Shown here: piece after piece, positions 35,680 through 58,837 of the stretch
Layout of the letters: each line of letters begins with the position of its first letter
How positions within the stretch are numbered: position 1 is the first letter of the stretch
Source: Escherichia coli
GTDB lineage: Bacteria; Pseudomonadota; Gammaproteobacteria; Enterobacterales; Enterobacteriaceae
Reading direction: 5' to 3' (one strand)
Length of the DNA: 64,000 nucleotides
NCBI RefSeq assembly: GCF_003334405.1
Contig: NZ_QOWM01000005.1
Program-made: the position numbers and the translations under genes
The notes under the pieces: generated by a model
What the model saw: only the letters and a program-made list of their open reading frames with translations
What the model was told of the DNA's origin: nothing
The model's database searches: none

Positions 35680-36786
35680 ATGAATAAAACAATAACGGCG
35701 CTTACTATCATAATGGCTTCATTTGCCGCAAACGCGTCTGTATTACCGGAAACTCCTGTGCCATTTAAAAGTGGTACCGGAGCAATTGATAACGACACTG
35801 TCTACATTGGTTTAGGTAGCGCAGGTACGGCATGGTACAAGCTGGATACACAGGCCAAAGATAAAAGATGGACAGCGTTAGCTGCATTCCCTGGCGGACC
35901 GAGAGATCAAGCAACCTCTGCATTTATTGATGGCAATCTGTATGTGTTTGGCGGCATTGGCAAAAACAGCGAGGGCTTGACTCAGGTATTTAATGACGTA
36001 CACAAATACAACCCCAAAACCAATAGCTGGGTTAAATTGATGTCGCACGCGCCGATGGGCATGGCGGGCCATGTGACTTTTGTACACAACGGCAAGGCTT
36101 ATGTTACTGGCGGTGTTAACCAGAATATCTTCAATGGCTATTTTGAAGATCTCAACGAAGCTGGAAAAGATTCAACCGCTATAGATAAAATCAACGCCTA
36201 CTATTTTGACAAAAAAGCAGAAGATTATTTCTTCAATAAGTTTCTGTTGTCTTTTGATCCCTCAACACAGCAATGGAGTTACGCTGGCGAATCTCCCTGG
36301 TACGGAACGGCTGGTGCGGCGGTTGTGAATAAAGGTGATAAAACCTGGCTTATTAATGGCGAAGCCAAACCAGGATTGCGAACGGATGCCGTATTTGAAC
36401 TTGACTTCACCGGTGATAATTTAAAATGGAATAAGCTTGATCCCGTCTCATCACCAGATGGCGTCGCTGGCGGTTTTGCGGGGATAAGCAATGATTCTCT
36501 TATATTTGCTGGAGGGGCCGGATTCAAAGGTTCACGAGAAAATTACCAGAACGGTAAGAACTATGCGCATGAAGGCCTGAAAAAATCATATAGCGTTGAT
36601 ATTCATCTTTGGTATAACGGGAAATGGGATAAATCGGGTGAATTATCGCAAGGTCGGGCCTACGGAGTATCATTGCCCTGGAATAATAGTTTATTAATTA
36701 TTGGCGGTGAAACTGCAGGCGGCAAAGCAGTGATGGATTCAGTTTTAATTTCTGTGAAGGATAATAAAGTCACAGTACAAAACTAA
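35680..36786 (+). CDS. nanM: N-acetylneuraminate mutarotase (Kelch-repeat)
   Basis: ORF 35572..36786 trimmed to MNKTITALTIIMASFAANA for 368 aa. Confidence 0.9.
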   Translation: MNKTITALTIIMASFAANASVLPETPVPFKSGTGAIDNDTVYIGLGSAGTAWYKLDTQAKDKRWTALAAFPGGPRDQATSAFIDGNLYVFGGIGKNSEGLTQVFNDVHKYNPKTNSWVKLMSHAPMGMAGHVTFVHNGKAYVTGGVNQNIFNGYFEDLNEAGKDSTAIDKINAYYFDKKAEDYFFNKFLLSFDPSTQQWSYAGESPWYGTAGAAVVNKGDKTWLINGEAKPGLRTDAVFELDFTGDNLKWNKLDPVSSPDGVAGGFAGISNDSLIFAGGAGFKGSRENYQNGKNYAHEGLKKSYSVDIHLWYNGKWDKSGELSQGRAYGVSLPWNNSLLIIGGETAGGKAVMDSVLISVKDNKVTVQN

Positions 36787-36850
36787 CGCTTCAGGGCCCC
36801 GGTAAAGGGGCCCTGCTATCAATTTGTCATTTCAATTACGCGAAATTTAT

Positions 36851-37831
36851 ATGAACGCAATAATATCGCCTGATTATTACTATATTCTTACCGTTGCTGG
36901 TCAGTCTAATGCCATGGCGTATGGCGAAGGACTGCCATTACCGGACAGGGAAGATGCGCCTCATCCCAGAATTAAACAATTAGCGAGATTTGCGCATACG
37001 CATCCCGGAGGCCCGTCATGTCACTTTAACGACATTATTCCACTGACTCACTGCCCACACGATGTTCAGGATATGCAGGGTTATCACCATCCTCTGGCAA
37101 CGAATCATCAAACACAGTACGGCACCGTTGGCCAGGCACTGCATATAGCACGGAAATTACTGCCCTTTATTCCTGATAATGCAGGGGTTCTCATCGTTCC
37201 GTGTTGCCGTGGCGGATCGGCTTTTACCGCGGGCAGCGAAGGAACATATTCAGAACGGCACGGAGCCAGCCATGATGCTTGTCGTTGGGGAACGGATACT
37301 CCGCTATACCAGGATTTAGTCAGCAGAACGCGAGCCGCACTGGCAAAAAATCCGCATAACAAATTCCTCGGCGTATGCTGGATGCAAGGCGAATTTGACT
37401 TAATGACCAGTGACTACGCGTCACACCCTCAACACTTTAATCATATGGTTGAAGCCTTTCGTAGGGATCTAAAACAATACCATTCTCAGCTTAATAATAT
37501 TACTGACGCACCGTGGTTTTGCGGCGATACCACCTGGTACTGGAAAGAAAATTTCCCTCATGCGTATGAAGTTATTTATGGCAATTATCAAAATAATGTT
37601 TTAGCCAATATTATTTTCGTCGACTTCCAGCAACAAGGTGAAAGAGGACTGACGAACGCGCCTGATGAAGACCCGGACGATTTAAGCACGGGATATTACG
37701 GTTCAGCGTACCGGTCACCGGAGAACTGGACGACGGCACTGCGAAGCAGTCATTTCAGCACGGCAGCCCGTCGGGGGATTATTTCTGACAAGTTTGTAGA
37801 AGCAATTTTGCAGTTTTGGCGCGAAAGGTGA
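36851..37831 (+). CDS. nanS: 9-O-acetyl-N-acetylneuraminate esterase
   Basis: ORF 36824..37831 trimmed to MNAIISPDYYYIL for 326 aa. Confidence 0.85.
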   Translation: MNAIISPDYYYILTVAGQSNAMAYGEGLPLPDREDAPHPRIKQLARFAHTHPGGPSCHFNDIIPLTHCPHDVQDMQGYHHPLATNHQTQYGTVGQALHIARKLLPFIPDNAGVLIVPCCRGGSAFTAGSEGTYSERHGASHDACRWGTDTPLYQDLVSRTRAALAKNPHNKFLGVCWMQGEFDLMTSDYASHPQHFNHMVEAFRRDLKQYHSQLNNITDAPWFCGDTTWYWKENFPHAYEVIYGNYQNNVLANIIFVDFQQQGERGLTNAPDEDPDDLSTGYYGSAYRSPENWTTALRSSHFSTAARRGIISDKFVEAILQFWRER

Positions 37832-37838
37832 GCGTTCA

Positions 37839-38489
37839 TTAATTTGATTTATTCGCATCCATCAGCGCTTTTAACTGCTCCGGCGTAAACGGTGGTTTGC
37901 GTCGGTGCAACATCGCATGGCAATTAGGGTACACAGGCAGCAAATCATTAACTGGATCCAGCTGGTAATCCTCTTTAATGGCTGACAGCGGCACCAGGTG
38001 ATGCACATGGATAAAGCCTTCAGCGATATCACCATAGATCTTCACCAGATCAACACCGCATACGTTGCACTGGCATCCATGATGTTCGACCGCTTTATCT
38101 CGGGCCTTTTTATCGCGTTCATAGCGGTTTACTGTCACCTTTATCGCCGCACCTTCAAGGTATGTCTCCTGCGACGGCAACTCATCCGGGAACAGAACGT
38201 CGGCTATGGGAGCCGCAGCGGCTTTATCCAGATGAATATGAAATCCCTGCTCTATGAGTAGCTTGACACATTTAGATTTTATTCCGCCGGTGAAATCCGC
38301 AGGGGTAAATTGCGTCCCCGTCATCAATGTCGCTGCGATGCCAGCAATCGCCTTCGAGGGGTAACGTCGGCCATGATATTCAATCTCATACAACCGCGCA
38401 GGCTGGAACTGATGAGTTTCTCCCGCATCCCATAAATGGATAGCTTCGATGATATACCGCCGCGGAAGATGATCAGGGAGTTTATTCAT
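37839..38489 (-). CDS. HNH-family nuclease with an uncharacterised ~135 aa N-terminal domain
   Basis: 216 aa; C-terminal GCQCNVCG...IHVHHLVPL...NDLLPVYPNCHAMLH is a zinc-ribbon HNH motif; convergent with nanS. Confidence 0.6.
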   Translation of the reverse strand: MNKLPDHLPRRYIIEAIHLWDAGETHQFQPARLYEIEYHGRRYPSKAIAGIAATLMTGTQFTPADFTGGIKSKCVKLLIEQGFHIHLDKAAAAPIADVLFPDELPSQETYLEGAAIKVTVNRYERDKKARDKAVEHHGCQCNVCGVDLVKIYGDIAEGFIHVHHLVPLSAIKEDYQLDPVNDLLPVYPNCHAMLHRRKPPFTPEQLKALMDANKSN

Positions 38490-38568
38490 GGAGAATGTCC
38501 TTATACGTTCTCAGAACAGGCAGCAAAAAAACAAATGAGATCAAGGTAATATATCTTCACTTGCAGGC

Positions 38569-38811
38569 TTGAACAGCAGAAAATTTGCGAGCATGATCGC
38601 AATTATTTCACTGCCAGGGATATCAATAGCTTCCAGTAAATCGCTACAGCAGGCAATTGCCAATATAAAAATCTGGCACAAGGGTGAACAGCGCGCGCCG
38701 CATAAGCCATTGTTATTGCTATACGTATTAGCGGGATACCTGAATGGACATCCGCGCCTTTTCGATTATTGTAGTGGAACAGTCTACGAGGATGCAGTTC
38801 GAAGTGAGTAA
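38569..38811 (+). other. unassigned 80 aa ORF divergent from the HNH gene
   Basis: Contains ...KIWHKGEQRAPHKPLLLLYVLAGYLNGHPRLF...; no confident family assignment. Confidence 0.25.
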
Positions 38812-39255
38812 GTAAAGGTTGCTGGAAACGATCAATGCCGCCATACAATGATTTTTTAGGATCAACAATGAGTAATAAAAACTACGAAAGTCACCGCAAA
38901 GCGATTGTTAGTAAAGGTATACCACCCGCTCTATTAAATAGGCTCACCAATTCGGATGTTCAGGTGATCAATACCTTCTTAACACGAGTGAGCAAACTGG
39001 AACTATCTCAACAAGAGAAAGACTGGATCATAAAAATCATCTCTATGGTTTAGACAATTTCAGCCTTGTAGCCTTTCAAGGGTTTTGTGTGGGTACAAAC
39101 ATTATCGAATCGGGGTATAGCCGCAGCTGTAGCTGTATCCACATCAGTAAGTTGATGTAGGTTGACTTAGGTTGAGCGAAAAATAGCGAAAAGCCTTGTG
39201 TGGCGCGGATTTCAGTCATAAAAAAACGTCCGTTGATGTCTATTGATGTTCCGAT

Positions 39256-39293
39256 GGTGCGAAGGTGCAAAGGTGCGAAGGCCGGACTCAAAC
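39256..39293. repeat. degenerate tRNA-Leu 3'-end-like sequence with a partial tandem duplication; probable island attachment-site remnant
   Basis: ggtgcgaaggccggactcaaac resembles the reverse complement of a tRNA-Leu acceptor/T-arm end (TGGTGCCGAAGGCCGGACTCGAACC); ggtgcgaagg also occurs immediately upstream. Confidence 0.4.
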
Positions 39294-39770
39294 ATGTGAC
39301 TTAACCTCATGATTTAAAATTGTTAATAATAAACAATATCATCTTATACCAACACAGATACCAACACGAAAAATCACTGGTTTTCGGCATCGAACCAGGA
39401 CAATCAGCTCCTGATTGAGATACCGAGCTCTGTTACTCGTCATCTTCCTCGACAGGCTTCATTGCATCAAGTAGTACTCGCACCATCGCGATAGAACCAA
39501 TCCGGATAAAAGCATCTTCTCCATCTATATCTGTTAACTGATATCGCTCACTTGATGCCGGATAATTGTGTCGATTTGCAGCAGTGAACTCTTTCGTACA
39601 GCCAGAATGCGGCGGATGCTGGTTGAGCAGATAACGTCCGTATTCTCGTTGACCACTTCCGGACGGTAGGCTGTGATATCAGACATAATCGATATTCCTT
39701 TTTGCAGATAAATGAAAATGCCAGCCCTGTTCAGGCTGGCGTCAGTGGAATGAAGTCTGGTGAGTAAGAC

Positions 39771-39968
39771 TCACCGGTTCTGGTGCTGAAGCTGCAGTTG
39801 GCGCAGGGTACGGATATCCTCTCTGGCCTGTTCGATACAGGGCAACAGTGCTGCTGAATCCGTTTTATCCTCATTGTTGTCAAAGATAATTCCCGATTCG
39901 CAGTCGATATTGTCCTGCAGCCACGCAATCAGAATATCCAGTGCGGTTTCCGTGGTTAATGATTTCAT
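39771..39968 (-). CDS. small DUF957-like island protein
   Basis: 65 aa MKSLTTETALDILIAWLQDNIDCESG..., typical last gene of CP4-type toxin-antitoxin modules. Confidence 0.4.
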   Translation of the reverse strand: MKSLTTETALDILIAWLQDNIDCESGIIFDNNEDKTDSAALLPCIEQAREDIRTLRQLQLQHQNR

Positions 39969-39979
39969 GTTGTTCCTGG

Positions 39980-40468
39980 TTACCAGTTGAAAGTGGGTAA
40001 ACCCGGCAGGCATTCAGCGCTGGCATCCAGATGAATGAGACTGACGCCATAACGTCGGGTAAGTGTGATAACCAGACGACGGAACGTTTTTGACAGCCCC
40101 AGGCGTTTAAGCCGCAGAACCGGATATGACCACGCATCGGTACGTAACAGATATCCGCTACCTGTGAAATGAATCCATTCTGATTCACCAACGTCACTGG
40201 TCTGATGCGACAGCGAGTACAGCCAGGCGTTATCCTTTTCCGTGATATGTGCGGTACTGCAGCGTATGCCGGCAAGGGTTGCAAACGGTGGTAGTGTGCA
40301 GGTTGACTGTTGGTCGGATTCCTCCACCACGCGGAGTGAATAACCGTTTTCAGCGACCTTGTTAATCAGTTCAGTGAGATTAACACCATCGACGTCAACG
40401 ACAATTCGCCCCATGTTCAGTGCCTGCACATTAATTCTGTCGGCTTCCAGCATCAGGGAAAGTTTCAT
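39980..40468 (-). CDS. YeeW-like (DUF5983-type) protein
   Basis: 162 aa, start overlaps the toxin gene stop by 4 nt. Confidence 0.45.
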
Positions 40469-40839
40469 CGTTTCTCCGGATGCTTACCCAGGGTAATGTT
40501 ATTTACCGTTCTGTAATTGTCGCGGGTCATCAGGCCGGTCGCCCTGCGAGCCCGGAGGATATCAATACTGTTTATTAACTGAGAGCGGGGACAAGTGCTG
40601 AATCCCGGCTGGTCGGTACGCACCAGCGCGTATTTTTCCACGAGAAAATTCACCGCATCACACAGTGAAATGCCAGCTTCAATATGCTGCTCAATCACAC
40701 GTTCATCGGCGAACGGTGTGTCATTCAGTGTAAGGCCGTAATGCTGGCCCAGTAGTCGGGAGAGCAGAGTCTGCCAGATGGTGACGGGAGACGGGCAGCT
40801 CGATGCCTCCCGTACGTGTGTATCGGGTAATGTTTTCAT
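40465..40839 (-). CDS. CbtA/YkfI/YpjF-family toxin
   Basis: 124 aa; [45 protein letters not shown] highly similar to recalled CbtA. Confidence 0.8.
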
Positions 40840-40928
40840 ACTGAAGGTTTTCCTGATATGCAGAGATGAAAAATGGAAAAGTGGCGTGGTGAAAGCACCA
40901 GGCCGGAGCAGAAGGTTATTCCGGTGGT

Positions 40929-41297
40929 TTACTTTTTCGTTTCGGGCGTCGGATAAACAGCCAGATAAACGTAACCACCGCTACCGAGAGTGTCAGCTTT
41001 GCAGGTCAGACCTTTTGCATACAGCGTGACGGTATGCTGATGGCGGGGATTCAGTTCACCGCTGGTGAGCATGAGTTCCAGTTGTTTCATCAGCAGCGGA
41101 AAGGCCTGGTCCAGGTGGTACGCATCTGCATCGCTGAACAGGCCTCTGATACCGGCGCGGTCGGCAAGGTAATGCAGGCGGTTACCCTCCTGCACCAGAC
41201 GGGCGCCGAAACAGGGCGTCACTGTGCAGGGTAGTCTCCACCAGGGATGGTCGTCATTGTCATCGGGATGCGTTGTCCCGGAAAGTGTGTCTGACAC
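40929..41297 (-). CDS. CbeA/YeeU-family antitoxin
   Basis: ORF 40929..41405 trimmed to GTG start (VSDTLSGTT...) for 122 aa; [34 protein letters not shown]. Confidence 0.8.
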
Positions 41298-41459
41298 GAT
41301 AAAATCCTCACAGAAAATCGGTGAATGATAGTTTAACGATGACGGGTCAGCCGGCGCGCAGACCGGCTTCGGTAAAGGTGTATTCGTTGATGAGCAGGAC
41401 CTCATCCACAGCGGCGTCTGAGCTCAGCCAGTCGTACTCGTTTTCCGGGTGACGGAACA

Positions 41460-41681
41460 TCAGTTCAGGGTGACGCTCATCAGCCGGACATACGGACCAA
41501 AACTGTCCTTACGGCGTTCTGCAAACACGGCCAGCACACCGGGAATATCCTGCACTTCACGACCGGTATACGCTTCAGCACTGCCGTGCCAGCGGTATTT
41601 GCCGGTACAGAACGGAAAAAGACGGGATGCCGGATGCTGACGGTGAATACGCATGGCTTCGCCACGGGTGATGATTTTCAT
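41460..41681 (-). CDS. YeeT-like (DUF987) protein
   Basis: 73 aa MKIITRGEAMRIHRQHPASRLFPFCTGKYRWHGSAEAYTGREVQDIPG... Confidence 0.65.
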   Translation of the reverse strand: MKIITRGEAMRIHRQHPASRLFPFCTGKYRWHGSAEAYTGREVQDIPGVLAVFAERRKDSFGPYVRLMSVTLN

Positions 41682-42149
41682 AGTGGGATACCTCTGAAGA
41701 CAGAAGATAAAAGTGAAAACAGGTGTGATGTGGTTGTGACGGGTTAAAGCAGACCATGTTCGGCAAAGGAGAAAACCTGGCTGCCACCGACTATCAGATG
41801 GTCCGGCACCCGGATAGCTGGAGGTACCGTCATGAGAGTTGAGCAGAATAATTTCAGGGACATGTTCTCCGTTTATCTCTCCGGCCCGCCGCAGACGCAG
41901 CATGTGTTTTGTGTATCCCCGGCGGCCCGGGTCGCGCACACGGGTCTGGCAGGCGAAGAATGGCTGAAAGCCTTCCCGCTGCAGGCTTTCCAGTACGGTG
42001 ATGGTGGGGATGTACGTATAGTTCTGGCTTCGGGACGTGTGTTTATCTTCCCCGAAAATCCCCGGCACATAGTGCATCAGTTCTTCGTGTGTCAGCGGAC
42101 GGTCACGGCGTATCTGGTTCGCATAACCAAAACGACTGGCTAGTCGCAT
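41682..42149 (-). pseudogene. 5' fragment of a DUF932-like (YfjQ-type) gene, frameshifted and fused in-frame to the yeeT-like ORF
   Basis: First ~120 codons of ORF 41460..42149 (MRLASRFGYANQIRRDRPL...LLNSHDGTSSY) look DUF932-like, then lose resemblance. Confidence 0.4.
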
Positions 42150-42560
42150 AATTTGCTCCTTATCGGTGGTTAAGATTTACTGGTGTAATAAATGAAAAAG
42201 CCACGTCTCCCGGAGAAGACGCGGCCTGATGGGTGAAATGAATGACGTTTATTGTCTGAGAAGACCGTCACTGGCGAGCCGCGTATTAAGCACCTTTCCG
42301 GCATCGGGTTCAGAATTCCGGCAGCGCCAGCGTCGCTGACCTTCCGCGTTGCGGATAACCCGACGGAAATGCATTCCCGGGTCATCCTGGATAAACACAT
42401 TGCGGTAAGCGGTTATGACAGCAACCGCCTGCCCGTATGAGAAAGATCCTTCAGCCAGGACATACTCTGTGTAACCCGGCATATCTGTTTTCTCCTGATA
42501 AATAAAAAGCCTCTGCCACGCGTTGTGACAGAGGCTGAAGCATGAAACTGACTTCAGGGA

Positions 42561-43016
42561 TCAGTTAACGTTTTTTCCGGAAACGGTAATCAGCAGTGGA
42601 TGGTAGTCCTGGGGATTGAAAACCGATAACGGCAGACTGACACGATGGCCGTTACTTTCTTCAGTTGCTTTGATGATTTCGGTTGTGGCGACATTTTCCA
42701 CGCACTCCGTTTCCAGAAATGCGTCTGTGGTTCGCGTGGCATTACTGTCACCAAAAGCTTCCGTTTCCATTTTTCTGGTCACCAGCGTCTGACCATATTT
42801 GTCTTTGAGTTGCAGAGTGATGGTGAGGGGGCCAAATCCTTCATCGTTTCCGCCATTATCCAGCCGGAACTGGTAAGCACAAATATTTCCCGGGAGCCAT
42901 ATCGTATCTGTATTGCGTATACTGATGTAACGTTGATCCTGTGCCCGGAGTGGGGCAGACCACGTTAACCCCAGAATGAAGGCGGTAATCATGCAGGTTT
43001 TGAACAGGTGAATCAT
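42561..43016 (-). CDS. hypothetical secreted protein
   Basis: 151 aa with N-terminal signal-peptide-like hydrophobic segment ending ...APLRAQ. Confidence 0.45.
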   Translation of the reverse strand: MIHLFKTCMITAFILGLTWSAPLRAQDQRYISIRNTDTIWLPGNICAYQFRLDNGGNDEGFGPLTITLQLKDKYGQTLVTRKMETEAFGDSNATRTTDAFLETECVENVATTEIIKATEESNGHRVSLPLSVFNPQDYHPLLITVSGKNVN

Positions 43017-43091
43017 GGTATTTACCTCTCTGAGTCATGACGATGACACTGACAAATCAGGTGATAAAGCGTAAAAGGCGCAGAATAGCCG

Positions 43092-44057
43092 TTATGCCGG
43101 TAACTCCGGGGGTAATGCTTCTTCCAGTCGGTTAACCATATTGCCGAGATGGGATGCATCATATTCCATGACGGGGCGTTGCCTGATGATACTGACCACC
43201 AGTGGTTTGATTAACATATTGGTCGCGGCCCGTTGTTGTATACCGGCGGCGAAAATGATCTCCAGAGCATTCTGATCGATAACACGGGCCAGATTCTCGT
43301 TCAGATTTTCAATCTCATGTCCGGTCAGCAGGAAACTGCCGGCAAGCCATGTCACCTGCTCCTGAATCATTGCCAGAATTTTGACGCGATCTTCTTCAAC
43401 CAGCGCTCCGGCAATTTTTCCTGATACAGCGGAGGCAATCATTCCCCCCAGAACACCGCCAACCACACGCCCTGTCAGTGCACCAAATGGTCCCAGTGGA
43501 CTGAACAGTATTCCGCCCGCCACTGACCCGACAGCACCACCTGCCACACCGGAAGATGCCACGGCAAGATTCCTGATGAACTGCGTACCGGAGATCCGTC
43601 CCCGCAACATTTTGATCATGTCAGGGCCGGTTGTGACAGCTACCAGTGCCAGAGATGTCACCAGCGTACCCTTCATCACTTTGTTCAGGGCACTGATATT
43701 TCCTGCACCGGTCCCCTTCTGAAGAGCCAGTCGAACAGTCGGGCTGGCAGTCGAAAAATCAATGTGCTTCAGCATACCCTGAACAACACTGAGCCGGTGG
43801 AGTTGCTGGGTTGTGACGTAGACAGCCAGTGTGCGGGTGAAGGTTTTTCCTGCCTGGACAGCAGCTGTCTGCAGGGCAGCATCGCGATCGCCGGTGCTGA
43901 GCCAGAAGACCGATGCCGTCAGGGCAAAACTGATCCCTCCGGCCGCCAGACTGACAACCGAACCCTCGGCAATATCATAAGTGACCGATTCGATGGTCCC
44001 GAACCGGGTGATATTACGGGCCTGAGTATAAGTCAGATGAGCCATACACGCGGCTTC
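43092..44057 (-). pseudogene. C-terminal fragment of an unidentified glycine-zipper-rich island protein, fused in-frame to a truncated IS66 tnpC
   Basis: Last ~320 codons of ORF 43092..45068; [41 protein letters not shown]; unlike IS66 TnpC C-termini. Confidence 0.35.
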
Positions 44058-45950
44058 CGTTATTCTGCCGGATTCGTATAACGCCCGGTAACCACCGTAA
44101 GCATCGGCCTGAAGCACACCGCTGTAACCGGCCAGGTGATTTTGTGGATGGATACCTTTCCGGTCCGGACTGTACGCGAACCAGACCGCCGGGGGCATCT
44201 GTGAACCGGCGTTACGGTCATCACGGACGTAGACCCACAGCCGGGCTGTCCGGGTTTTACCGCTGCCCGGCTCCTGGACCGGGACGGGGATATCATCAGC
44301 ATGGACTTTACCGGGCATCAGCACATACTGGCGCAGGACGTCATACAGCGGCTCCAGCAGTTCAGCAACAGCACCTGTCCAGCGCCCCAGTGTGGCACGG
44401 CTCAGCTCCACTCCCTGACGACGGTATATTTCTGACTGGCGGTATAACGGCAGATGGTCTGCATATTTCCCGGTGACAACATGGGCCAGAAGCCCCGCTC
44501 CGGCATAACTGCGTGCAATGGGTTTTGAAGGTACTGGTGCCTGCACGATATGGTCGCACCGGCAACAGGCCTGTTTCGGACGTTGTGTTTCGATAACCTT
44601 AAAGGCGCTGCTGATAAGCTCCAGTTGCTCTGACACATCACATCCCAGAGAACTGAGTTCACCACCACAGGCAGGACAGCATTCCTCTTCCGGCCGGATA
44701 ACCCGGGTTTCACGGGGAAGTGAGGCCGGTAACGGTTTACGGGCTGAAGACTGGCGCAGGGCGGATGGCAGTACCGGGTCATATTGCTCACCCAGCGTTT
44801 CCGCCATTTCTTCCTGAAGTGCGCTGATTCGCTCCTGTGCTTCCTGTATCTGCCGTTCGGTTTTTGCACGAAGTTTTTCTGAGCTTTTACCGAACTGCAT
44901 ACGTTGCAGTTTCGCAACCAGCGCCTTCAGCCGGTTGATTTCGGAAGCATAAGCCGCCACCCGCTGTGAGAGCAGGCGGTTGTATTCAGCCATCTGGCGG
45001 ATGGTGTCCTGTTGCGTCTGCAACAGTGCCCGCAGGCGGGCGTTCTCATGAGCAAGTGAGGTGTCCATATCCTCACTTTACAACGGGTTATATGCGGATT
45101 CCAGCGCGTTCCGTTCGTTTCGGGTGCTTCCAGTTGATACCTTCAAGAAGCATGGATAACTGAGCCGGAGTAAGGTGCACCTTGCCGTCACGGGTGACTG
45201 GCCAGACGAAGCGGCCCCGCTCCAGGCGTTTGGTGAAGAGGCACAGTCCGTCACTGTCAGCCCACAACACTTTTATCTGGTCACCCCGGCGTCCGCGGAA
45301 GATGAACAGGTGTCCGGAGAACGGGTCATCCTTCAGGACGTTCTGAACTTTTGATGCCAGGCCGTTAAAGCCATTTCGCATATCGGTGATACCTGCAACC
45401 AGCCAGATACGCGAACCTGCAGGGAGAGATATCATCAGTGGCTGCTCCCTTTTATTTCGCGGATAAGTGTCTGTAATAACGCCGGCGTCAGTTTACCTTT
45501 AAGCCTGAGAGTTCCGGCCGGCAGAACCAGCTCACAACACAGACTGTCGGACGGTGTATTTATCTGCTCTGGTTCCTGTGCGGGGGCCGGGATTTTATTA
45601 TCCGGCTCCGGCGTTAACGTCACGGGAAGCAGTGCCGGCATATTTTTTCCGGAAGGCAGCAGGCCACCTTTCCGGTATTGATGGCGCCAGTTGAAGAGCA
45701 GGTTATCGTTGATTCCGTTTTCCCGGGCGATCTGCGCCACACAGGCTCCGGGCTGCAGTGACTGCTCCACTAAGGCGATTTTAAACTCATAAGGGAAGTT
45801 GGGCCGCCGGGGACGTTTTTTTACCACGGGGGCTTCGGATATAACGGTGCTTTCAGGACGTACGACTGGTACCGTGGAAAATTGTCCGTAACCCTCAGTA
45901 TCAGCTGTGAGGTAACGTTCCGGCACGGGACGCTCCGCTTCAATGGCAAT
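44058..45950 (-). mobile_element. IS66-family element, copy 1, truncated at the tnpC 3' side
   Basis: tnpA-like (45435..45926), tnpB (45088..45435; WLVAGITDMRNGFNGL) and first ~337 codons of tnpC (CCPACGG zinc-finger, through EAACMAHL); boundaries approximate. Confidence 0.65.
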
Positions 45951-47811
45951 GTCAGCGAAAAGCTCCTGACTCTGCTGATACAGGAACTGAAGCGATGATC
46001 CCGTTACCTTCCGGGACCAAAATTTGGCTGGTTGCCGGTATCACCGATATGAGAAATGGCTTCAACGGCCTGGCTGCGAAAGTACAAACGGCGCTGAAAG
46101 ACGATCCCATGTCCGGCCATGTTTTCATTTTCCGGGGCCGCAGCGGCAGTCAGGTTAAACTGCTGTGGTCCACCGGTGACGGACTGTGCCTCCTGACCAA
46201 ACGGCTGGAGCGTGGGCGCTTCGCCTGGCCGTCAGCCCGTGATGGCAAAGTGTTCCTTACGCAGGCGCAGCTGGCGATGCTGCTGGAAGGTATCGACTGG
46301 CGACAGCCCAAGCGGCTGCTGACCTCCCTGACCATGCTGTAAATCTCTTTATCCTGGTTGTCACAGAATAAGCCCGGTAAAATACGGGCTTATGAACGAC
46401 ATCTCTTCTGACGACATCTTCCTGCTAAAACAGCGCCTGGCCGAACAGGAAGCGCTGATCCACGCCCTGCAGGAAAAGCTGAGCAACCGGGAGCGCGAAA
46501 TAGACCATCTGCAGGCGCAGCTGGATAAACTCCGCCGGATGAACTTCGGCAGTCGTTCCGAAAAAGTCTCCCGCCGTATCGCACAAATGGAAGCCGATCT
46601 GAACCGGCTTCAGAAAGAGAGCGATACGCTGACTGGTAGGGTGTATGACCCGGCAGTACAGCGTCCGTTGCGTCAGACCCGCACCCGTAAGCCGTTCCCT
46701 GAATCACTACCCCGTGACGAAAAGCGACTGTTGCCTGCGGCGCCGTGCTGCCCGAACTGCGGCGGTTCACTGAGCTATCTGGGCGAGGATACCGCCGAAC
46801 AGCTGGAGTTGATGCGTAGCGCATTCCGGGTTATCCGGACGGTACGGGAAAAACATGCCTGTACTCAGTGCGATGCCATCGTGCAGGCACCTGCACCTTC
46901 GCGGCCCATCGAGCGGGGTATCGCCGGACCGGGGCTGCTGGCCCGCGTGCTGACCTCGAAGTATGCAGAGCACACCCCGCTGTATTGCCAGTCAGAAATA
47001 TACGGCCGGCAAGGTGTGGAGCTGAGCCGTTCACTGCTGTCAGGCTGGGTGGATGCATGCTGCCGGCTGCTGTCTCCGCTGGAAGAGGCGCTTCATGGCT
47101 ATGTCATGACTGACGGCAAACTCCATGCCGATGATACCCCGGTCCAGGTACTGCTGCCGGGTAATAAGAAGACGAGGACCGGGCGGTTGTGGGCGTATGT
47201 TCGTGATGACCGCAATGCCGGGTCAGCGTTGGCACCTGCAGTGTGGTTCGCTTACAGCCCGGACAGAAAAGGCATCCATCCGCAGACTCATCTTGCTTGC
47301 TTCAGCGGTGTGCTGCAAGCGGATGCGTACGCCGGGTTCAACGAGCTGTATCGCAATGGTGGGATAACGGAAGCTGCCTGCTGGGCTCATGCCCGCCGAA
47401 AGATCCACGATGTGCACGTCCGCATCCCGTCAGCACTGACGGAAGAAGCCCTGGAGCAGATCGGTCAGTTGTACGCCATAGAGGCGGATATAAGGGGAAT
47501 GCCGGCAGAGCAGCGGCTTGCTGAACGTCAGCGAAAAACGAAACCGCTGTTGAAATCCCTGGAAAGCTGGTTGCGTGAAAAGATGAAGACCCTGTTCTTC
47601 GGCTCTGGCCATGGTGGTGAGCGGGGAGCGCTACTGTACAGCCTGATCGGGACGTGCAAACTGAATGACGTGGATCCAGAAAGCTACCTTCGCCATGTGC
47701 CTGGCGTCATAGCAGACTGGCCGGTCAACCGGGTCAGCGAACTGCTTCCGTGGCGCATAGCACTGCCAGCTGAATAACACATCCCCGTCAATACGGCCCT
47801 CGCTGTACGCT
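45951..47811 (+). mobile_element. IS66-family element, copy 2, lacking most of tnpA
   Basis: tnpA C-terminal tail (...EKLLTLLIQELKR), tnpB 45995..46342, tnpC 46392..47777 (461 aa), terminal GTAAGCG-type end at about 47805-47811; TnpB only ~75% identical to copy 1. Confidence 0.65.
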
Positions 47812-48015
47812 TACTTTTGTTCGGACTGCTTATGGCCTTTTTCCACTGGTGTAGCAGGAAAGTTAACCGGCTGCCACCATGAGATGACGTGTAAACCGTG
47901 CAGGCATGTTTTCACGTGGTGACGCTTTCATTGGGGGTCTACGCCGGAACCCCAATATTGTTCACATACATGAATTTGAAAAACTAAGCGATACTGCTGT
48001 CCGTACCTTATAAAC

Positions 48016-49374
48016 TTATTTCAACGCTTCCGGCAGCGTCACAATCCACAGTTCACTGTCAGACTCCGGTTTCTCCAGTGGCTTCACTCTGAGGGTCGTT
48101 TCAACCTGCTTGTCGTCAAGCGTCAGCTTTCCTTCCGCGTTCACCCGATAATCCTTGAATGTCTTGCCCTCGACCGGATGTTGCATCGCCACCTTCACGC
48201 CAAAGTCGTTATCGTTCGCCACCGCCAGCGTTTTGCTGTCGATCAGCGCCAACCCTTCAGCCTTCTCCTGCTGCCAGCCCAAGGAGCGCAGATCAACAAC
48301 CTGCGTTTTCTGCGCAAGGGTAATGCCGCGCTGTGACAGGGTTTTCTCATCATCAAACTCCGGATACTCACCCGGCTTGTCGAAGCCTGACAGGTCGCTC
48401 GCCTTATTGAGATCGACCTCGTAAATCAGGTTACGCATTCTGTTGTTTTTATCTCTTCCCTGTTCGATCAGCAGGATGTGCTGGTTATCGAGCGCCACGA
48501 TGTCTCCGATTTTAGCGTCGCTGTTTTTGCTGTAGGCCGCGCTGTCGATAGGATAACCGTACATCGCGGTTTTTCCGCTTGCCGGATCGAAGCTCACCAG
48601 ACGCGTAAACAGCGCCTTTTTCTTGCTCTTAGCGTCGATATCCAGCGTACTTTGCACGGCGACAATAATACGCCCGTCCGGCATACGGGTGAGGCCTTCA
48701 AAGCCGCGGTTCGCCTGACGCCATTTGAGGATATTTGGCAAACCGCCCGCAATCGCTTTTTCCCCTTCCGCCGCCTGCGGACCGTGGATTGCCAGGATTT
48801 TCCCTTTACTGTCGATGTTAATCAGGAACGGGCCATACTCATCGCACAGCCAGTAACCTCCTTTACCATCCGGAGTGATCCCTTCCGTATCCAGCCCGCG
48901 ATTATCCCCCTTCAGTCTATGTAACGTGTCGCTGAAGGCCACTTCATTGGTGGAGCCAATCACGTCGCTTGCCAGCGGCAGACCGTTGATCGCGCCTTTA
49001 TCGTCATGCAGAGGACGAGGATCGATGGCCTCCGCTTTGCCGTTTTGTACACGAATCGTCATCAGCAGCGGCGCGAAATCTGGCGTAACGAAAATTTTAG
49101 TTTCGTTTTTCCCCTCTTTCGGTGAATCCGCGTTCGGACCGCGATCGGTAATGGTTGCGAATGTCAGGGCATCGCCCTGTTTACCGGTGAACAGCAGGCC
49201 AGAACCTATCCCAACCGGAAGGCCGTTCGGGAATGCACTGGCAAATGCGCCGGCGTAGTTCACGTGCGTGCCTTCTGGAAAACTGACGACATAGCGCTCA
49301 GCCGTAGGTTGTGCCGCCAGGGCAGAGAAAGAGAGCGTACAACCGATTAGCACGGGAATAATTTTTCTTTTCAT
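48016..49374 (-). CDS. secreted phytase-like (esterase-like-activity-of-phytase family) protein
   Basis: ORF 48016..49389, start at MKRKIIPVLIGCTLSFSALAA signal peptide; repeated beta-propeller-like segments. Confidence 0.45.
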   Translation of the reverse strand: MKRKIIPVLIGCTLSFSALAAQPTAERYVVSFPEGTHVNYAGAFASAFPNGLPVGIGSGLLFTGKQGDALTFATITDRGPNADSPKEGKNETKIFVTPDFAPLLMTIRVQNGKAEAIDPRPLHDDKGAINGLPLASDVIGSTNEVAFSDTLHRLKGDNRGLDTEGITPDGKGGYWLCDEYGPFLINIDSKGKILAIHGPQAAEGEKAIAGGLPNILKWRQANRGFEGLTRMPDGRIIVAVQSTLDIDAKSKKKALFTRLVSFDPASGKTAMYGYPIDSAAYSKNSDAKIGDIVALDNQHILLIEQGRDKNNRMRNLIYEVDLNKASDLSGFDKPGEYPEFDDEKTLSQRGITLAQKTQVVDLRSLGWQQEKAEGLALIDSKTLAVANDNDFGVKVAMQHPVEGKTFKDYRVNAEGKLTLDDKQVETTLRVKPLEKPESDSELWIVTLPEALK

Positions 49375-49637
49375 ATTGTTAGCATCCATAAAGTGAAGAT
49401 CACACTACACCATAAAGAAGAAACGAGTCAGGAAAATGACATCGAATGGCAACATGCGCGGGCCTGAGGCCAAAGAAATGTAAAACACTGTTGTTATTTG
49501 TAACAACGGAAACATTTACGGAAATTATTTGTCTTTCTTCGTGATCAAAAATGCTGTGTCTTGTTGGATTGGAGTGATGAGGGCTGCGTTTAGGAAACGC
49601 CCTATATTGTACGGTTGCATTATCGCGGTAGGGGTAA

Positions 49638-49790
49638 TGCACGTGTCAGTATGATGAGCTGACCACACTCACGTGGGTGGACTGGTATAACAATCGACGA
49701 TTGCTGGAAAGGCAGGGCCATATCCCACCGGCAGAAGCAGAAAAAGCTTATTATGCTTCCATCGGAAACGATGATCTGGCAGCCTGAGTT
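49638..49790 (+). pseudogene. 3' remnant of an IS3-family transposase (integrase-core C-terminus)
   Basis: Frame reads ...WVDWYNNRRLLERQGHIPPAEAEKAYYASIG...stop, the conserved W-x-x-WYN-x-R-R-x-H...PAE transposase tail with no upstream part. Confidence 0.4.
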
Positions 49791-50013
49791 CACAGATAAA
49801 ACACTCTCCAGGAAACCCGGGGCGGTTCACTTAGCCGCGTGTCCATTATTGCTGGATAAGATCAGTCAATAATAGCAGACCAACCACATCATGAGTCATT
49901 CTGACCGACACATGCCAGAAGCAGAGGCTCCATCCCATTTTATACCTACCTTATAACACTTAGAAAAACAACATGTTAAAAATGTCTATTGGAAACAATT
50001 TTATTTCCAATTG

Positions 50014-50032
50014 TAATGATAACCATTCTCAT
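50014..50032. promoter_or_regulatory. Fur box upstream of fecI
   Basis: taatgataaccattctcat versus Fur consensus GATAATGATAATCATTATC. Confidence 0.6.
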
Positions 50033-50074
50033 ATTAATATGACTACGTGATAATTAACTTTTGATGCACTCCGC

Positions 50075-50592
50075 ATGTCTGACCGCGCCACTACCACAGC
50101 TTCCTTAACGTTCGAGTCGCTTTATGGCACACATCACGGCTGGTTGAAAAGCTGGCTGACGCGCAAACTCCAGTCTGCTTTTGATGCAGATGACATTGCC
50201 CAGGACACTTTTTTGCGGGTAATGGTCAGCGAAACGCTCTCGACGATCCGCGATCCTCGCTCCTTCCTCTGCACTATCGCCAAACGCGTGATGGTGGACC
50301 TGTTTCGCCGAAACGCGCTGGAAAAAGCGTATCTGGAGATGCTGGCGCTTATGCCGGAGGGGGGAGCGTCTTCACCTGAGGAACGCGAAAGCCAACTCGA
50401 GACCCTACAACTCCTCGACAGCATGCTGGACGGGCTAAACGGCAAAACACGTGAAGCGTTTCTGCTTTCGCAACTGGATGGTCTGACATACAGCGAGATT
50501 GCGCACAAACTCGGTGTTTCCATCAGCTCCGTGAAAAAATACGTGGCGAAAGCCGTCGAGCACTGCCTGCTGTTCCGTCTGGAGTATGGGTT

Positions 50593-50596
<4 letters not shown>
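50075..50596 (+). CDS. fecI: ECF sigma factor for ferric citrate transport
   Basis: 173 aa, recognisable FecI. Confidence 0.9.
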
Positions 50597-53957
<3,361 letters not shown>

Positions 53958-54001
53958 TGTGTTAACGCCCGGCTTGCCGGGCTTTTAGCTGGAATGTGAT
54001 T

Positions 54002-54904
54002 ATGTTGGCATTTATCCGTTTTGTTTTTGCAGGCCTGCTGCTGGTGATCAGCCACGCCTTTGCCGCCACGGTTCAGGACGAACACGGCACGTTTACACTC
54101 GAAAAAACGCCACAACGGATTGTGGTGCTGGAACTCTCGTTCGCCGATGCGCTGGCCGCCGTGGACGTCAGCCCGATCGGTATTGCCGACGATAACGATG
54201 CAAAACGCATCCTGCCCGAAGTGCGTGCGCACCTGAAACCGTGGCAGTCCGTCGGAACGCGCGCGCAGCCGAGCCTGGAAGCCATTGCCGCTCTGAAACC
54301 AGACCTGATCATTGCCGACAGCAGTCGCCATGCGGGGGTTTACATCGCCTTGCAGCAAATCGCGCCGGTACTGCTGCTTAAGTCCCGCAACGAAACCTAC
54401 GCTGAAAATTTGCAATCTGCGGCTATCATCGGCGAAATGGTGGGTAAAAAGCGAGAGATGCAGGCACGCCTGGAACAACATAAAGAGAGGATGGCGCAGT
54501 GGGCCAGCCAGCTTCCCAAAGGGACACGCGTGGCCTTTGGCACATCACGCGAACAGCAATTCAACCTGCATACTCAGGAGACCTGGACCGGCAGCGTGCT
54601 GGCCTCTCTGGGGCTGAACGTTCCCGCTGCGATGGCGGGTGCGTCCATGCCGTCCATCGGCCTGGAGCAACTGCTGGCGGTCAATCCTGCCTGGCTGCTG
54701 GTTGCCCACTATCGCGAAGAGAGCATTGTTAAACGCTGGCAACAAGATCCGCTCTGGCAGATGTTAACCGCCGCGCAGAAGCAGCAGGTTGCTTCGGTCG
54801 ACAGTAACACCTGGGCGCGGATGCGCGGTATTTTTGCTGCAGAGCGTATTGCCGCTGACACGGTAAAAATCTTCCACCATCAGCCGCTTACCGTTGTGAA
54901 ATGA
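54002..54904 (+). CDS. fecB: periplasmic ferric citrate-binding protein
   Basis: ORF 53996..54904, start at MLAFIRF for 300 aa. Confidence 0.9.
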   Translation: MLAFIRFVFAGLLLVISHAFAATVQDEHGTFTLEKTPQRIVVLELSFADALAAVDVSPIGIADDNDAKRILPEVRAHLKPWQSVGTRAQPSLEAIAALKPDLIIADSSRHAGVYIALQQIAPVLLLKSRNETYAENLQSAAIIGEMVGKKREMQARLEQHKERMAQWASQLPKGTRVAFGTSREQQFNLHTQETWTGSVLASLGLNVPAAMAGASMPSIGLEQLLAVNPAWLLVAHYREESIVKRWQQDPLWQMLTAAQKQQVASVDSNTWARMRGIFAAERIAADTVKIFHHQPLTVVK

Positions 54905-55899
54905 CCGCGATAAAACACCCGGTGCTGCTGTGGGGGCTTCCCGTTGCAGCACTTATTATTATTTTCTGGCTGAGTCTGTTTTGCTACTCGGCCATTCCTG
55001 TTTCCGGAGCAGATGCAACCCGCGCCCTGCTGCCTGGACACACGCCAACGCTACCAGAAGCGCTGGTGCAAAACCTTCGTTTGCCACGAAGCCTGGTCGC
55101 CGTTCTGATCGGCGCAAGCCTGGCGCTCGCGGGCACGCTGCTGCAAACCCTGACCCACAACCCAATGGCCTCTCCTTCACTGCTCGGCATTAACAGCGGC
55201 GCGGCGCTGGCTATGGCGCTTACCAGCGCGCTGAGTCCGACGCCGATTGCAGGCTATTCTCTGTCGTTCATCGCGGCATGCGGGGGCGGCGTGAGCTGGC
55301 TGCTGGTCATGACCGCAGGAGGCGGATTTCGTCATACCCATGACAGAAACAAACTGATCCTCGCGGGTATCGCGCTGTCGGCCTTTTGTATGGGCCTTAC
55401 CCGCATCACCCTGCTGCTGGCCGAAGATCATGCTTACGGCATCTTTTACTGGCTGGCAGGCGGAGTGTCCCACGCCCGCTGGCAGGATGTCTGGCAGCTC
55501 TTGCCGGTGGTGGTCACTGCAGTCCCTGTCGTGTTGCTGCTGGCGAATCAACTGAACCTGCTCAACCTCAGCGACAGCACCGCCCATACGCTGGGAGTGA
55601 ACCTGACGAGGCTACGTTTGGTCATCAATATGTTAGTGCTGCTTCTGGTTGGTGCGTGCGTCAGCGTGGCAGGTCCGGTGGCGTTTATCGGTCTGCTGGT
55701 GCCACATCTGGCGCGCTTCTGGGCAGGCTTCGATCAGCGCAACGTACTGCCAGTGAGCATGCTGCTGGGGGCCACGCTGATGCTGCTGGCAGATGTACTC
55801 GCACGCGCGCTGGCCTTCCCCGGAGATCTGCCCGCAGGCGCAGTGCTGGCGCTGATTGGCAGCCCTTGCTTTGTCTGGCTTGTGAGGAGGCGAGGATGA
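54901..55899 (+). CDS. fecC: ferric citrate ABC permease
   Basis: 332 aa FecCD-family permease. Confidence 0.9.
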   Translation: MTAIKHPVLLWGLPVAALIIIFWLSLFCYSAIPVSGADATRALLPGHTPTLPEALVQNLRLPRSLVAVLIGASLALAGTLLQTLTHNPMASPSLLGINSGAALAMALTSALSPTPIAGYSLSFIAACGGGVSWLLVMTAGGGFRHTHDRNKLILAGIALSAFCMGLTRITLLLAEDHAYGIFYWLAGGVSHARWQDVWQLLPVVVTAVPVVLLLANQLNLLNLSDSTAHTLGVNLTRLRLVINMLVLLLVGACVSVAGPVAFIGLLVPHLARFWAGFDQRNVLPVSMLLGATLMLLADVLARALAFPGDLPAGAVLALIGSPCFVWLVRRRG

Positions 55900-56852
55900 A
55901 AATTGCGCTGGTTATTTTCATCACCCTTGCCCTGGCGGGCTGTGCGCTGTTATCACTCCATATGGGAGTGATCCCCGTGCCGTGGCGCGCGCTGCTGACC
56001 GACTGGCAGGCCGGACGCGAGCATTATTATGTATTGATGGAGTACCGACTGCCGCGCTTGCTGCTGGCACTGTTTGTCGGTGCAGCCCTCGCCGTGGCGG
56101 GCGTGCTGATACAGGGGATTGTGCGCAACCCTCTGGCATCACCGGATATTCTCGGCGTTAACCATGCCGCCAGCCTGGCCTCTGTGGGGGCTCTACTTCT
56201 TATGCCGTCACTGCCCGTGATGGTGCTGCCGCTGCTGGCCTTTGCGGGCGGCATGGCGGGGTTGATATTGCTGAAGATGCTGGCAAAGACCCACCAGCCG
56301 ATGAAGCTGGCGCTCACCGGCGTGGCGCTTTCTGCATGCTGGGCCAGCCTGACGGATTATCTGATGCTCTCGCGCCCGCAGGATGTGAACAACGCCCTGC
56401 TGTGGCTGACCGGCAGCTTATGGGGCCGTGACTGGAGCTTTGTGAAGATTGCCATCCCGCTGATGATTTTATTTCTGCCGCTGAGCCTGAGTTTTTGCCG
56501 CGATCTCGACCTCCTTGCACTCGGCGATGCGCGCGCCACCACGCTCGGTGTGTCGGTGCCCCATACCCGATTCTGGGCTTTGTTACTAGCTGTCGCCATG
56601 ACATCTACCGGCGTGGCCGCCTGCGGCCCGATTAGCTTTATTGGTCTCGTGGTGCCGCATATGATGCGTAGCATCACCGGTGGACGTCACCGCAGACTGC
56701 TGCCTGTTTCAGCCCTGACAGGTGCGTTGCTGTTGGTGGTTGCCGATCTGCTGGCGAGAATTATTCATCCCCCACTGGAGCTCCCGGTTGGCGTGCTGAC
56801 CGCCATTATCGGTGCGCCGTGGTTTGTCTGGTTGCTTGTGAGAATGCGATAA
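55896..56852 (+). CDS. fecD: ferric citrate ABC permease
   Basis: ORF 55386..56852 trimmed to MKIALVIFITLALAG for 318 aa, ATGA overlap with fecC. Confidence 0.85.
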   Translation: MKIALVIFITLALAGCALLSLHMGVIPVPWRALLTDWQAGREHYYVLMEYRLPRLLLALFVGAALAVAGVLIQGIVRNPLASPDILGVNHAASLASVGALLLMPSLPVMVLPLLAFAGGMAGLILLKMLAKTHQPMKLALTGVALSACWASLTDYLMLSRPQDVNNALLWLTGSLWGRDWSFVKIAIPLMILFLPLSLSFCRDLDLLALGDARATTLGVSVPHTRFWALLLAVAMTSTGVAACGPISFIGLVVPHMMRSITGGRHRRLLPVSALTGALLLVVADLLARIIHPPLELPVGVLTAIIGAPWFVWLLVRMR

Positions 56853-57620
56853 ATGACTTTACGAACTGAAAATCTGACGGTCAGTTACGGGACAGACAAG
56901 GTACTTAACGACGTTTCACTCTCACTGCCAACGGGGAAGATCACCGCCCTGATCGGTCCTAACGGTTGCGGGAAATCGACGCTGTTAAACTGTTTTTCGC
57001 GGCTTTTAATGCCGCAGTCTGGCACCGTATTTCTCGGCGATAATCCCATAAATATGCTCTCATCGCGCCAGTTGGCCCGCAGGCTTTCGCTGCTGCCTCA
57101 GCACCATTTAACGCCAGAGGGGATCACAGTCCAAGAGCTGGTTTCGTATGGTCGTAATCCCTGGCTGTCACTCTGGGGGCGTCTCTCCGCTGAAGACAAT
57201 GCACGAGTTAATGTCGCCATGAACCAGACCCGGATCAATCATCTTGCCGGTCGTCGGTTAACCGAGCTTTCCGGCGGTCAGCGCCAGCGCGTATTTCTGG
57301 CGATGGTCCTGGCCCAGAATACGCCCGTTGTATTACTTGATGAGCCAACCACCTATCTTGATATCAATCACCAGGTGGACCTGATGCGGTTGATGGGCGA
57401 ACTCCGGACTCAGGGGAAAACGGTGGTCGCTGTGCTGCACGACCTTAATCAGGCTAGCCGGTACTGCGATCAACTGGTGGTAATGGCAAACGGACATGTT
57501 ATGGCGCAAGGCACACCAGAAGAGGTGATGACCCCAGGATTGCTGAGAACAGTATTCAGCGTGGAAGCGGAAATACACCCCGAGCCGGTATCTGGCAGGC
57601 CGATGTGCCTAATGAGGTAG
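56853..57620 (+). CDS. fecE: ferric citrate ABC ATPase
   Basis: 255 aa; Walker A GPNGCGKST and LSGGQRQR signature. Confidence 0.9.
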   Translation: MTLRTENLTVSYGTDKVLNDVSLSLPTGKITALIGPNGCGKSTLLNCFSRLLMPQSGTVFLGDNPINMLSSRQLARRLSLLPQHHLTPEGITVQELVSYGRNPWLSLWGRLSAEDNARVNVAMNQTRINHLAGRRLTELSGGQRQRVFLAMVLAQNTPVVLLDEPTTYLDINHQVDLMRLMGELRTQGKTVVAVLHDLNQASRYCDQLVVMANGHVMAQGTPEEVMTPGLLRTVFSVEAEIHPEPVSGRPMCLMR

Positions 57621-58177
57621 ATTGCACAGGCCGTAAGAACCAAACCACGACTGAATGAAACTGGACTGGCGCCAGCAAGCCTGTTCAGACTGGGGCTGAA
57701 CTTTTCCGGACTCTGAAAGATTACCAATACTCATCGTCCATCCGCTTGCTTTAGGCTGACAGGTTCATAATCAACGCAAACCAGAGCTGTACAGGCTTGG
57801 GCGCGGCTTTCAAACCAGTCGTGATCACGGCAATCAATTTTGAACTCTGCTTAACGGACATTTCTGTATAACCCTTACGGCAACGAAAAACGCGAAGTTA
57901 AAATTTTAGAAACCCAAAAACGTGACATGACTAAGTTTAGATTTCAGGGGGGGAGATCAAAAAATTTCGCTCTGTGCCAGAGCGGACATTCACGGAGCTG
58001 GTTCATTACCAATGAGGTTGGGCTTTTGAGGATAAATCAATGATCAGACGCCAACGTAAATCAAAAGCAACCCTGGAACGGAATTGCTAATCCAGTTTCT
58101 GACCATCGATTTTTCTAAAAAGTGTGCGTTTGCTACTACTTAGGTAGGTGCAGCTTTCTTAATCACCGGCAGCCACG

Positions 58178-58519
58178 TTATACAGGCCAGTTGATGGATC
58201 GATTGTTATCAATGATATCTTCATGAGTCGGTGTCTCACCCAGCTTACCGAAGCTGGCATAAAGTGAAGGCAGACGGGCCCGTCCTTCTCCCTTTTTCGC
58301 CAGAGGGAAAGCGCGAAGCATGGTGGCAGCCTCCCAGTCACAACAATAGGATGGTGTGCACGGCTGCTGACGCCATGATTCAGCGATAGAGCCGGAAAAT
58401 ACGGGGTCAAAGCCGGTATCATTAACCAGAGTCATCGTGACCTGTACTGCGGCTGGATGATCTCCTGCTACTGCAACTGCTAGGCGACCGCGGCTCCCTT
58501 CAGGTAGTGAAGTGGTCAA
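58178..58519 (-). pseudogene. C-terminal fragment of an NAD(P)-binding oxidoreductase-like gene
   Basis: 113 aa ORF resembling only the C-terminal part of F420/NADP-type oxidoreductases (VAGDHPAAVQVTMTLVNDTGFDPV); no N-terminal Rossmann motif. Confidence 0.3.
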
Positions 58520-58817: not shown

Positions 58818-58837
58818 AAAATTCACCTTATGCTTTT

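Follow-up and report, generated by a model that had tools for sequence, protein, structure and literature searches.

We report here that the degenerate tRNA end lying at 39256-39293 of the window, that is, of the whole 64-kb stretch of Escherichia coli DNA that was analysed, is very probably the distal, attR-type junction of a P4-family element integrated at the 3' end of leuX, and that it forms the seam of a tandem array of islands. The second part of this reading follows from the DNA to its left, which appears to derive from the integrase-side arm of an earlier P4-type island, so that the site would join two layers of acquired DNA and not an island to the core chromosome. From left to right, the segments concerned are as follows.

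36824-37831, plus strand: nanS, final gene of the K-12-colinear stretch (97.8% identity as far as 37834)
37835-38476, minus strand: HNH endonuclease cassette (its ORF, 37839-38489, extends 13 bp past the right-hand junction)
38461-38811, plus strand: truncated gene for a phosphorothioate-DNA-dependent restriction endonuclease, N-terminal ~45 aa (positions 2-45 of 284 in NCBIfam NF045808)
38770-39067, plus strand: remnant of older accessory DNA with a small conserved ORF (38835-39053)
39068-39254, minus strand: attL-type arm of an earlier island, in decayed form (75-87% identical to intergenic regions between leuX and integrase in other genomes)
39252-39281, no strand: 8-bp tandem repeat (GGTGCGAA x3) inside the core copy (Tandem Repeats Finder and the junctions of 10 other genomes)
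39255-39289, minus strand (tRNA sense): degenerate copy of the 20-bp P4/leuX att core (comparison with leuX and the annotated P4 attP core)
39290-39400, no strand: P arm, or element-side att arm, of a P4-family element of the PAI II536/IntB type (aligned with P4 attP and with the corresponding junctions in EC11 and isolate 68)
39294-64000, no strand: composite accessory region at leuX (colinearity with strain JNEC-KY180 and its annotation; IS66 proteins)
39346-39367, plus strand: two tandem arm-type repeats ATACCAACAC, putative sites for the N-terminal arm domain of the integrase (repeat search, P4 alignment)

The stretch 39256-39293 reads ggtgcgaaggtgcaaaggtgcgaaggccggactcaaac, identical to the letters given in the first-pass annotation, and the same strand of leuX in the closest genome, JNEC-KY180, reads TGGTGCCGAAGGCCGGACTCGAACCGG. 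Phage P4 and leuX have in common a 20-bp att core, TGGTGCCGAAGGCCGGACTC, of which the window carries a copy on the minus strand; in tRNA sense this copy runs TGGTGC-GAAGG[+16 bp]CCGGACTC, having lost one C of the core and gained 16 bp in the form of two additional 8-mers. Nineteen of the 20 core positions are nonetheless kept, split by the 16-bp tandem insertion, and the orientation is that of leuX in the colinear genome. The earlier observation that the site resembles the reverse complement of a tRNA-Leu 3' end is therefore borne out: the sequence matches the end of leuX, and chance is excluded as a source of the match. When searched with up to 3 mismatches, the 18-mer GAAGGCCGGACTCGAACC occurs once in the 64-kb window (39277-39294, 2 mismatches), with no second leuX-end copy besides, against an expectation of 0.02 in shuffled sequence. 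Moreover, the adjoining ~200 bp find matches downstream of real leuX genes (E-values 4e-59 to 7e-31). ARAGORN and Rfam found no tRNA, no RNA family and no cloverleaf over the whole window, so the site is a tRNA fragment comprising the 3' 20 nt only, and not a gene.

The attP of phage P4 reads TGGTGCCGAAGGCCGGACTCAAACAT, in which the annotated core is followed by AAACAT, and in the window AAACAT likewise follows GGACTC. The true shared core is thus the 20 bp ending in GGACTC (39289), and AAAC(AT) belongs to the element's own arm. Because P4 attP has the same AAACAT past its core, the 'caaac' end of the copy is P-arm sequence and not tRNA decay, and we rejected random decay as the source of the G>A in 'tcaaac'.

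Tandem Repeats Finder detects an 8-bp unit in ~3.8 copies at 39252-39281 (score 46). The first-pass annotation had noted a partial tandem repeat, described as a duplication of ggtgcgaagg; the repeat is real, but it consists of three copies of the 8-bp unit GGTGCGAA, not of a duplication. The middle copy carries a G>A in the window that close relatives do not have. One copy of the unit is present in EC11, MNCRE44, isolate 68 and SaT040, three in the window, O26 11368, JNEC-KY180, WCHEC020031, 582 and RCAD0514, and five in SW07091; copy number is polymorphic among E. coli, and even numbers were absent from this small sample (the window and 10 genomes). The loss of the core C is common to pseudo-cores with four different left arms, which points to an old deletion inherited via recombination at the site, and in strain 536 a further nucleotide of the core is gone. 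Private random decay was for these reasons rejected as an account of the C deletion. A perfect 11-nt inverted repeat, CGATGGTGCGA at 39252-39262 and TCGCACCATCG at 39478-39488, links the core copy, at its left margin, with a spot 215 nt inside the island end, where ~0.03 such pairs are expected in 500 bp.

To the right of the core the sequence turns into an AT-rich arm that begins with AAACAT and aligns with the P arm of P4 attP, and 39290-39400 is, on visual comparison, ~95% identical to the right terminus of PAI II536. Two copies of ATACCAACAC lie within it at 39346-39355 and 39358-39367, spaced by 12 bp, and they fall in the same alignment columns as the annotated tandem 12-bp arm repeats of P4 (4151-4174); by this positional analogy we regard them as putative arm sites of the integrase. 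A scan for exact motifs placed the integrase arms of K-12 intB and 536, together with the distal arms of the window, 536 and isolate 68, in the TACCAACA type, and the integrase arms of JNEC-KY180 and isolate 68, together with the distal arms of SaT040 and RCAD0514, in the TATACTCA type. The O8:H28 arm is of the TACCCGCA type, of which the left arm of the window is a decayed version.

Everything beyond this arm had been described as accessory-like, and the genes found agree with that description. The region 39294-64000 contains a CP4-type end module (fragments of HTH and DUF4942 genes, DUF957, DUF5983 and CbtA/YeeU), IS66 copies, fecIRABCDE and dndBCDE. JNEC-KY180 is 99.98% identical to the window over 36000-41816 and 45890-64000, and matches 85% of 39200-64000 at 100% identity. 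Its annotation reads rightward from the CP4-type module through IS66, a phytase-like esterase, fecIRABCDE and dndBCDE to dptFGH, a tyrosine integrase of the P4 family split by IS100, the tRNA-Leu gene leuX, and ahr. The intact leuX of this nearest relative lies 37.2 kb to the right of the site, which corresponds to ~14.5 kb past window position 64000. An intact tRNA and an integrase had been predicted beyond that position, and both are found there in JNEC-KY180; given this colinearity, the window's own genome presumably has them too. The two genomes differ by a 1.4-kb deletion in the window at 41816, covering most of a JAB/RadC gene, an antirestriction gene and part of a DUF932 gene, and by an additional 3.8 kb in the window (42070-45889) that bears the second IS66 copy (43092-45926, minus strand; TnpA, TnpB and a 658-aa transposase ORF).

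Yet the two ends of this region do not match. In the lineage of the window and JNEC-KY180 the distal arm is of the TACCAACA type, whereas the arm of the leuX-proximal integrase carries the TATACTCA motif. The right-hand DNA is therefore not one coherent island, and its mismatched ends indicate that two or more elements have fused to form the 37-39 kb between the arms; the seam between them has disappeared, as the 18-mer search found no further core copy that would mark it. Since the proximal integrase, as seen in the nearest relative, belongs to the other arm-site subfamily and is moreover split by IS100, the region is probably fixed, unless an integrase of the IntB/PAI II536 type acts in trans. 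In practice, the fec-dnd region should be regarded as a mosaic with mismatched ends that is unlikely to move alone.

The left flank had been taken for core-like DNA, and this part of the earlier description did not hold. Colinearity with K-12 continues through nanS to 37834 and resumes only at 38461-38769, whose K-12 counterpart (85-90% identity) lies downstream of nanS. Between the core copy and nanS there lies instead a decayed island arm (39068-39255), followed by ~1.2 kb of accessory remnants. The arm comprises a relic of the leuX terminator (~39216-39250) and the upstream region of an integrase whose gene has been deleted. In distant BLAST searches, 39068-39265 is 75-87% identical to the regions between real leuX genes and integrases in many genomes, and in the O8:H28 strain BMH-17-0027 the match spans from the 3' end of leuX to within 6 bp of the integrase start codon. 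The terminator hairpin has decayed as well: it folds at -4.6 kcal/mol in the window copy (z +0.75), against -14.5 to -19.4 kcal/mol for real leuX-downstream hairpins with their U run (z -2.5 to -4.4). Remains of the integrase are still present after the arm in isolate 68, as a pseudogene belonging to a BREX island, and in SaT040, as a fragment, in both cases to the left of the same pseudo-core. These two genomes thus show the left-arm arrangement in its undecayed form.

Further to the left, homology between the window and CEC15 ends at 39063, after which CEC15 has an AbiEii/DUF6088/DUF4942/type I R-M module beside leuX; CEC15 thus gives a picture of the older layer. The small ORF at 38835-39053 (plus strand, 61-72 aa) is annotated elsewhere as the hypothetical protein WP_000066585.1, has no NCBIfam match, and is kept in CEC15, HCP6S3_I1 and relatives. 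EC11 and 536 have the restriction endonuclease gene at its full length of 290 aa. Its remnant in the window (38569-38811, the first ~45 codons) shares its neighbourhood with the dndBCDE phosphorothioation genes at ~58.8-64 kb, and the truncation may reflect an incompatibility resolved via gene loss. Compared with K-12 (GAGCG|GGGAG), the HNH cassette (640 bp, encoding 216 aa) is inserted precisely between the stop codon of nanS and the restriction gene start, with no target duplication, and only a 105-bp fragment of it is retained in EC11 and 536. No second att copy marking the far end of the older island was found near nanS, either by the 18-mer search of the window or in K-12, and there was no leuX-end copy in the K-12 region from leuX to fimE (apart from leuX itself) or at the CEC15 junction locus (nan/fim to hsdR). 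The extent of the older island is thus inferred.

A simpler reading would have a single island at leuX, with the DNA to the left of 39256 ancestral and its similarity to other arms due to the native leuX terminator; we consider this unlikely. It draws on the genome HCP6S3_I1, in which the same left DNA (97.1% identity over 36000-39244) stands directly beside leuX, and on the terminator-like hairpin and T run that are common to all leuX-downstream arms. The homology, however, extends over ~190 bp and takes in a whole integrase upstream region, to the very edge of an integrase gene of the O8:H28 type, and in isolate 68 and SaT040 integrase remains are still found after the arm. Nor does the intervening DNA look ancestral: 37835-39067 holds the HNH cassette, the truncated restriction gene and a segment that reaches the Abi/DUF4942 module in CEC15, and K-12 colinearity stops already at 37834. 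The island boundary proposed in the first-pass annotation can thus be retained as the distal end of leuX-integrated DNA, but not as a border between core and island, nor as the edge of a single coherent island on the right.

The arrangement in HCP6S3_I1 warrants a closer description. Its genes run nanC-nanM-nanS-HNH-restriction fragment-small ORF-arm, immediately after which come an intact leuX and ahr (extracted locus positions 11650-12450), and there is no degenerate core copy. It is the one empty site among 5,426 complete E. coli genomes, the locus being occupied in the other 5,425, and it comes from a single CM-accession assembly in which a collapse between two similar arms is possible. 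Its terminator is of the K-12 type joined to a window-type arm, which suggests that an island was lost through recombination between two similar arms. A chimeric query made of the left arm, the triple repeat and the rest of leuX, representing an empty site with a broken leuX, corresponded to no genome; its best match was the intact-leuX empty site of HCP6S3_I1 (92.4%). The annotation had named two findings that would speak against it, namely that no tRNA shared this 3' sequence or that an island-free strain carried the copy; leuX does share the sequence, and the island-free HCP6S3_I1 lacks the degenerate copy.

Both flanks occur together (query 39190-39400) in 654 genomes. Elsewhere they are combined differently. 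EC11 and MNCRE44 match from 39272 rightward only and have other left arms and a single 8-mer; 536 likewise has the right flank in common from 39272 and a different left arm. Conversely, RCAD0514 has the left arm with its triple repeat in common with the window as far as 39287, beyond which comes a different CP4-type end. Strain 582 has the same two features in common with the window, up to 39293 only; its leuX sequence then goes on for another 33 nt, and next come an integrase and a 12.6-kb phage-like element extending to the real leuX. That the flanks reassort exactly at the core indicates repeated site-specific recombination, and breakpoints coinciding with the core are what integrase-mediated exchange is expected to leave. 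The element of strain 582 (extracted locus 1-12930) occupies leuX and encodes an integrase, a major capsid protein and a baseplate protein. Its segment of leuX identity extends at least 33 nt beyond GAAGG, much longer than that of P4-type islands, and the element could represent another type of phage or satellite that targets leuX.

Three right-hand elements are therefore found on the same half-site: an end of the PAI II536 type, the 12.6-kb element of 582, and the TATACTCA-type island of RCAD0514. One could suppose that such elements integrated into the pseudo-core itself, used as a secondary attachment site in place of the real leuX. The intact GAAGGCCGGACTC beside the P arm would be in keeping with this, as would the identical left arm and triple repeat next to three unrelated elements, but we hold it to be highly improbable. 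In strain 582 the 12.6-kb element alone fills the interval from the pseudo-core to the real leuX, a layout in keeping with insertion into leuX, whether intact or broken and then repaired by the element. In addition, PAI II536 leaves the chromosome as a circle and inserts again at leuX alone via its P4-like integrase, and when remobilised into a deletion mutant it restored the tRNA gene (PMC3202238). As for a chance resemblance or a generic low-complexity repeat unrelated to tRNA integration, the perfect match covers 13 nt only and an 8-bp microsatellite could arise anywhere, but the 18-mer expectation of 0.02, the leuX-arm homology with E-values down to 4e-59, the alignment of the right flank with P4 attP and the same junction at the end of PAI II536 leave this reading next to no probability.

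A distal attR-type junction within a tandem array could have arisen as follows. A P4-type tyrosine integrase would bind arm-type repeats and the 20-bp core, as established for P4 and PAI II536 and as we infer here, and strand exchange would take place inside the core. The incoming element would bring a new tRNA 3' end and terminator beside its integrase, and the old tRNA 3' end would be displaced to the far end of the element. The layout of the window is consistent with this: the element-side arm would lie on the right (39290 onward), the displaced tRNA end at 39255-39289, and the former leuX-downstream DNA on the left. That left-hand DNA would be the terminator and integrase upstream arm of the earlier P4-type island, its integrase and cargo deleted. 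The displaced half-site would then have decayed, with the C lost, the 8-bp unit triplicated and the terminator hairpin broken. Excision of the element should leave a defective leuX, to be repaired by incoming elements.

Excision leaving a defective leuX is known for strain 536. We tentatively put forward, as a possibility and not as our expectation, that the degenerate attR acts as a lock, the decayed half-site and its left arm having persisted while at least three unrelated right-hand elements replaced one another. If so, precise excision would regenerate a broken leuX, and only cells gaining an element with a good tRNA 3' end would be restored. The leuX locus would then stay occupied, as it is in 5,425 of the 5,426 genomes, and turnover of islands would be driven, not their loss. 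For annotation, the junction provides a landmark: DNA integrated at leuX stops at 39289/39290, the conserved flank proper begins only at the nanS stop (37834), and the 1.4 kb between that stop and the core is debris of the older island.

Among known systems, PAI II536 comes closest. Like the window, it has the same P arm (~95% by eye) with two TACCAACA arm repeats, end genes consisting of DUF4942 and HTH fragments, DUF957, DUF5983 and CbtA, a neighbourhood of restriction gene, HNH and nanS/M/C, and a core copy with a small deletion at the tRNA 3' end. Its core copy, TGGTCGAAGGCCGGACTCGAAC, is a perfect 18-bp repeat with leuX. It differs from the window in reading TGGT--CGAAGG without the 8-bp triplication, in having GAAC instead of AAAC, and in its left arm, which is of the CEC15/EC11 terminator type and not an integrase-arm relic. 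At its proximal end PAI II536 has a matching IntB-type integrase and arm (TACCAACA) and is experimentally mobile (PMC3202238), whereas the counterpart in the nearest relative of the window is the IS100-split integrase of the other arm type. All these integrases belong to the P4 family: that of 536 is 59% identical to P4 Int, and those of the nearest relative and of O8:H28 are 82% and 78% identical, respectively, to the 536 enzyme.

The attP/attB pair of P4 itself (20-bp core in leuX) resembles the window in having the same core, bar the deletion and insertion, with AAACAT next, and an AT-rich arm with two tandem 12-bp arm repeats equally far from the core; the integrase family is also the same. 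The arm repeat sequences differ (ATACCAAC against ATGCCCCC), and the cargo is, unlike that of P4, a CP4-type island with fec and dnd. None of the P4 genes alpha primase, sid, psu, delta or cI/epsilon occurs in the annotation of the colinear 37 kb of JNEC-KY180, and P4 was not among the matches listed when leuX was compared by BLAST with a phage collection. An integrated satellite phage P4 was rejected, as the JNEC-KY180 annotation lists fec, dnd, dpt, IS and the CP4-type module instead. KpLE2/PR-Y of K-12 (intB ... fec ... yjhR, upstream of nanS) occupies the same locus at leuX and carries fec; like the region in the window it is bracketed by ahr-leuX and nanS-nanM-nanC-fim, and its integrase arm has TACCAACA motifs. 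In contrast to the window, it has no recognisable copy of the leuX 3' end at its distal end, and its cargo is sgc, yjhGHI and nanXY.

Tandem island arrays at one tRNA gene are represented in the Islander and TIGER catalogues. In such arrays the arrival of a new island moves the previous one, together with the former tRNA end, away from the gene, and serial integration leaves a pseudo-att followed by the integrase-side arm of the older island. The window departs from them in that its older island has shrunk to ~1.4 kb and has lost its integrase. The junction described here is nevertheless already known in kind, being a textbook tRNA-island junction whose counterparts are the right-end direct repeat of PAI II536 and phage P4, and conceptually it changes nothing.
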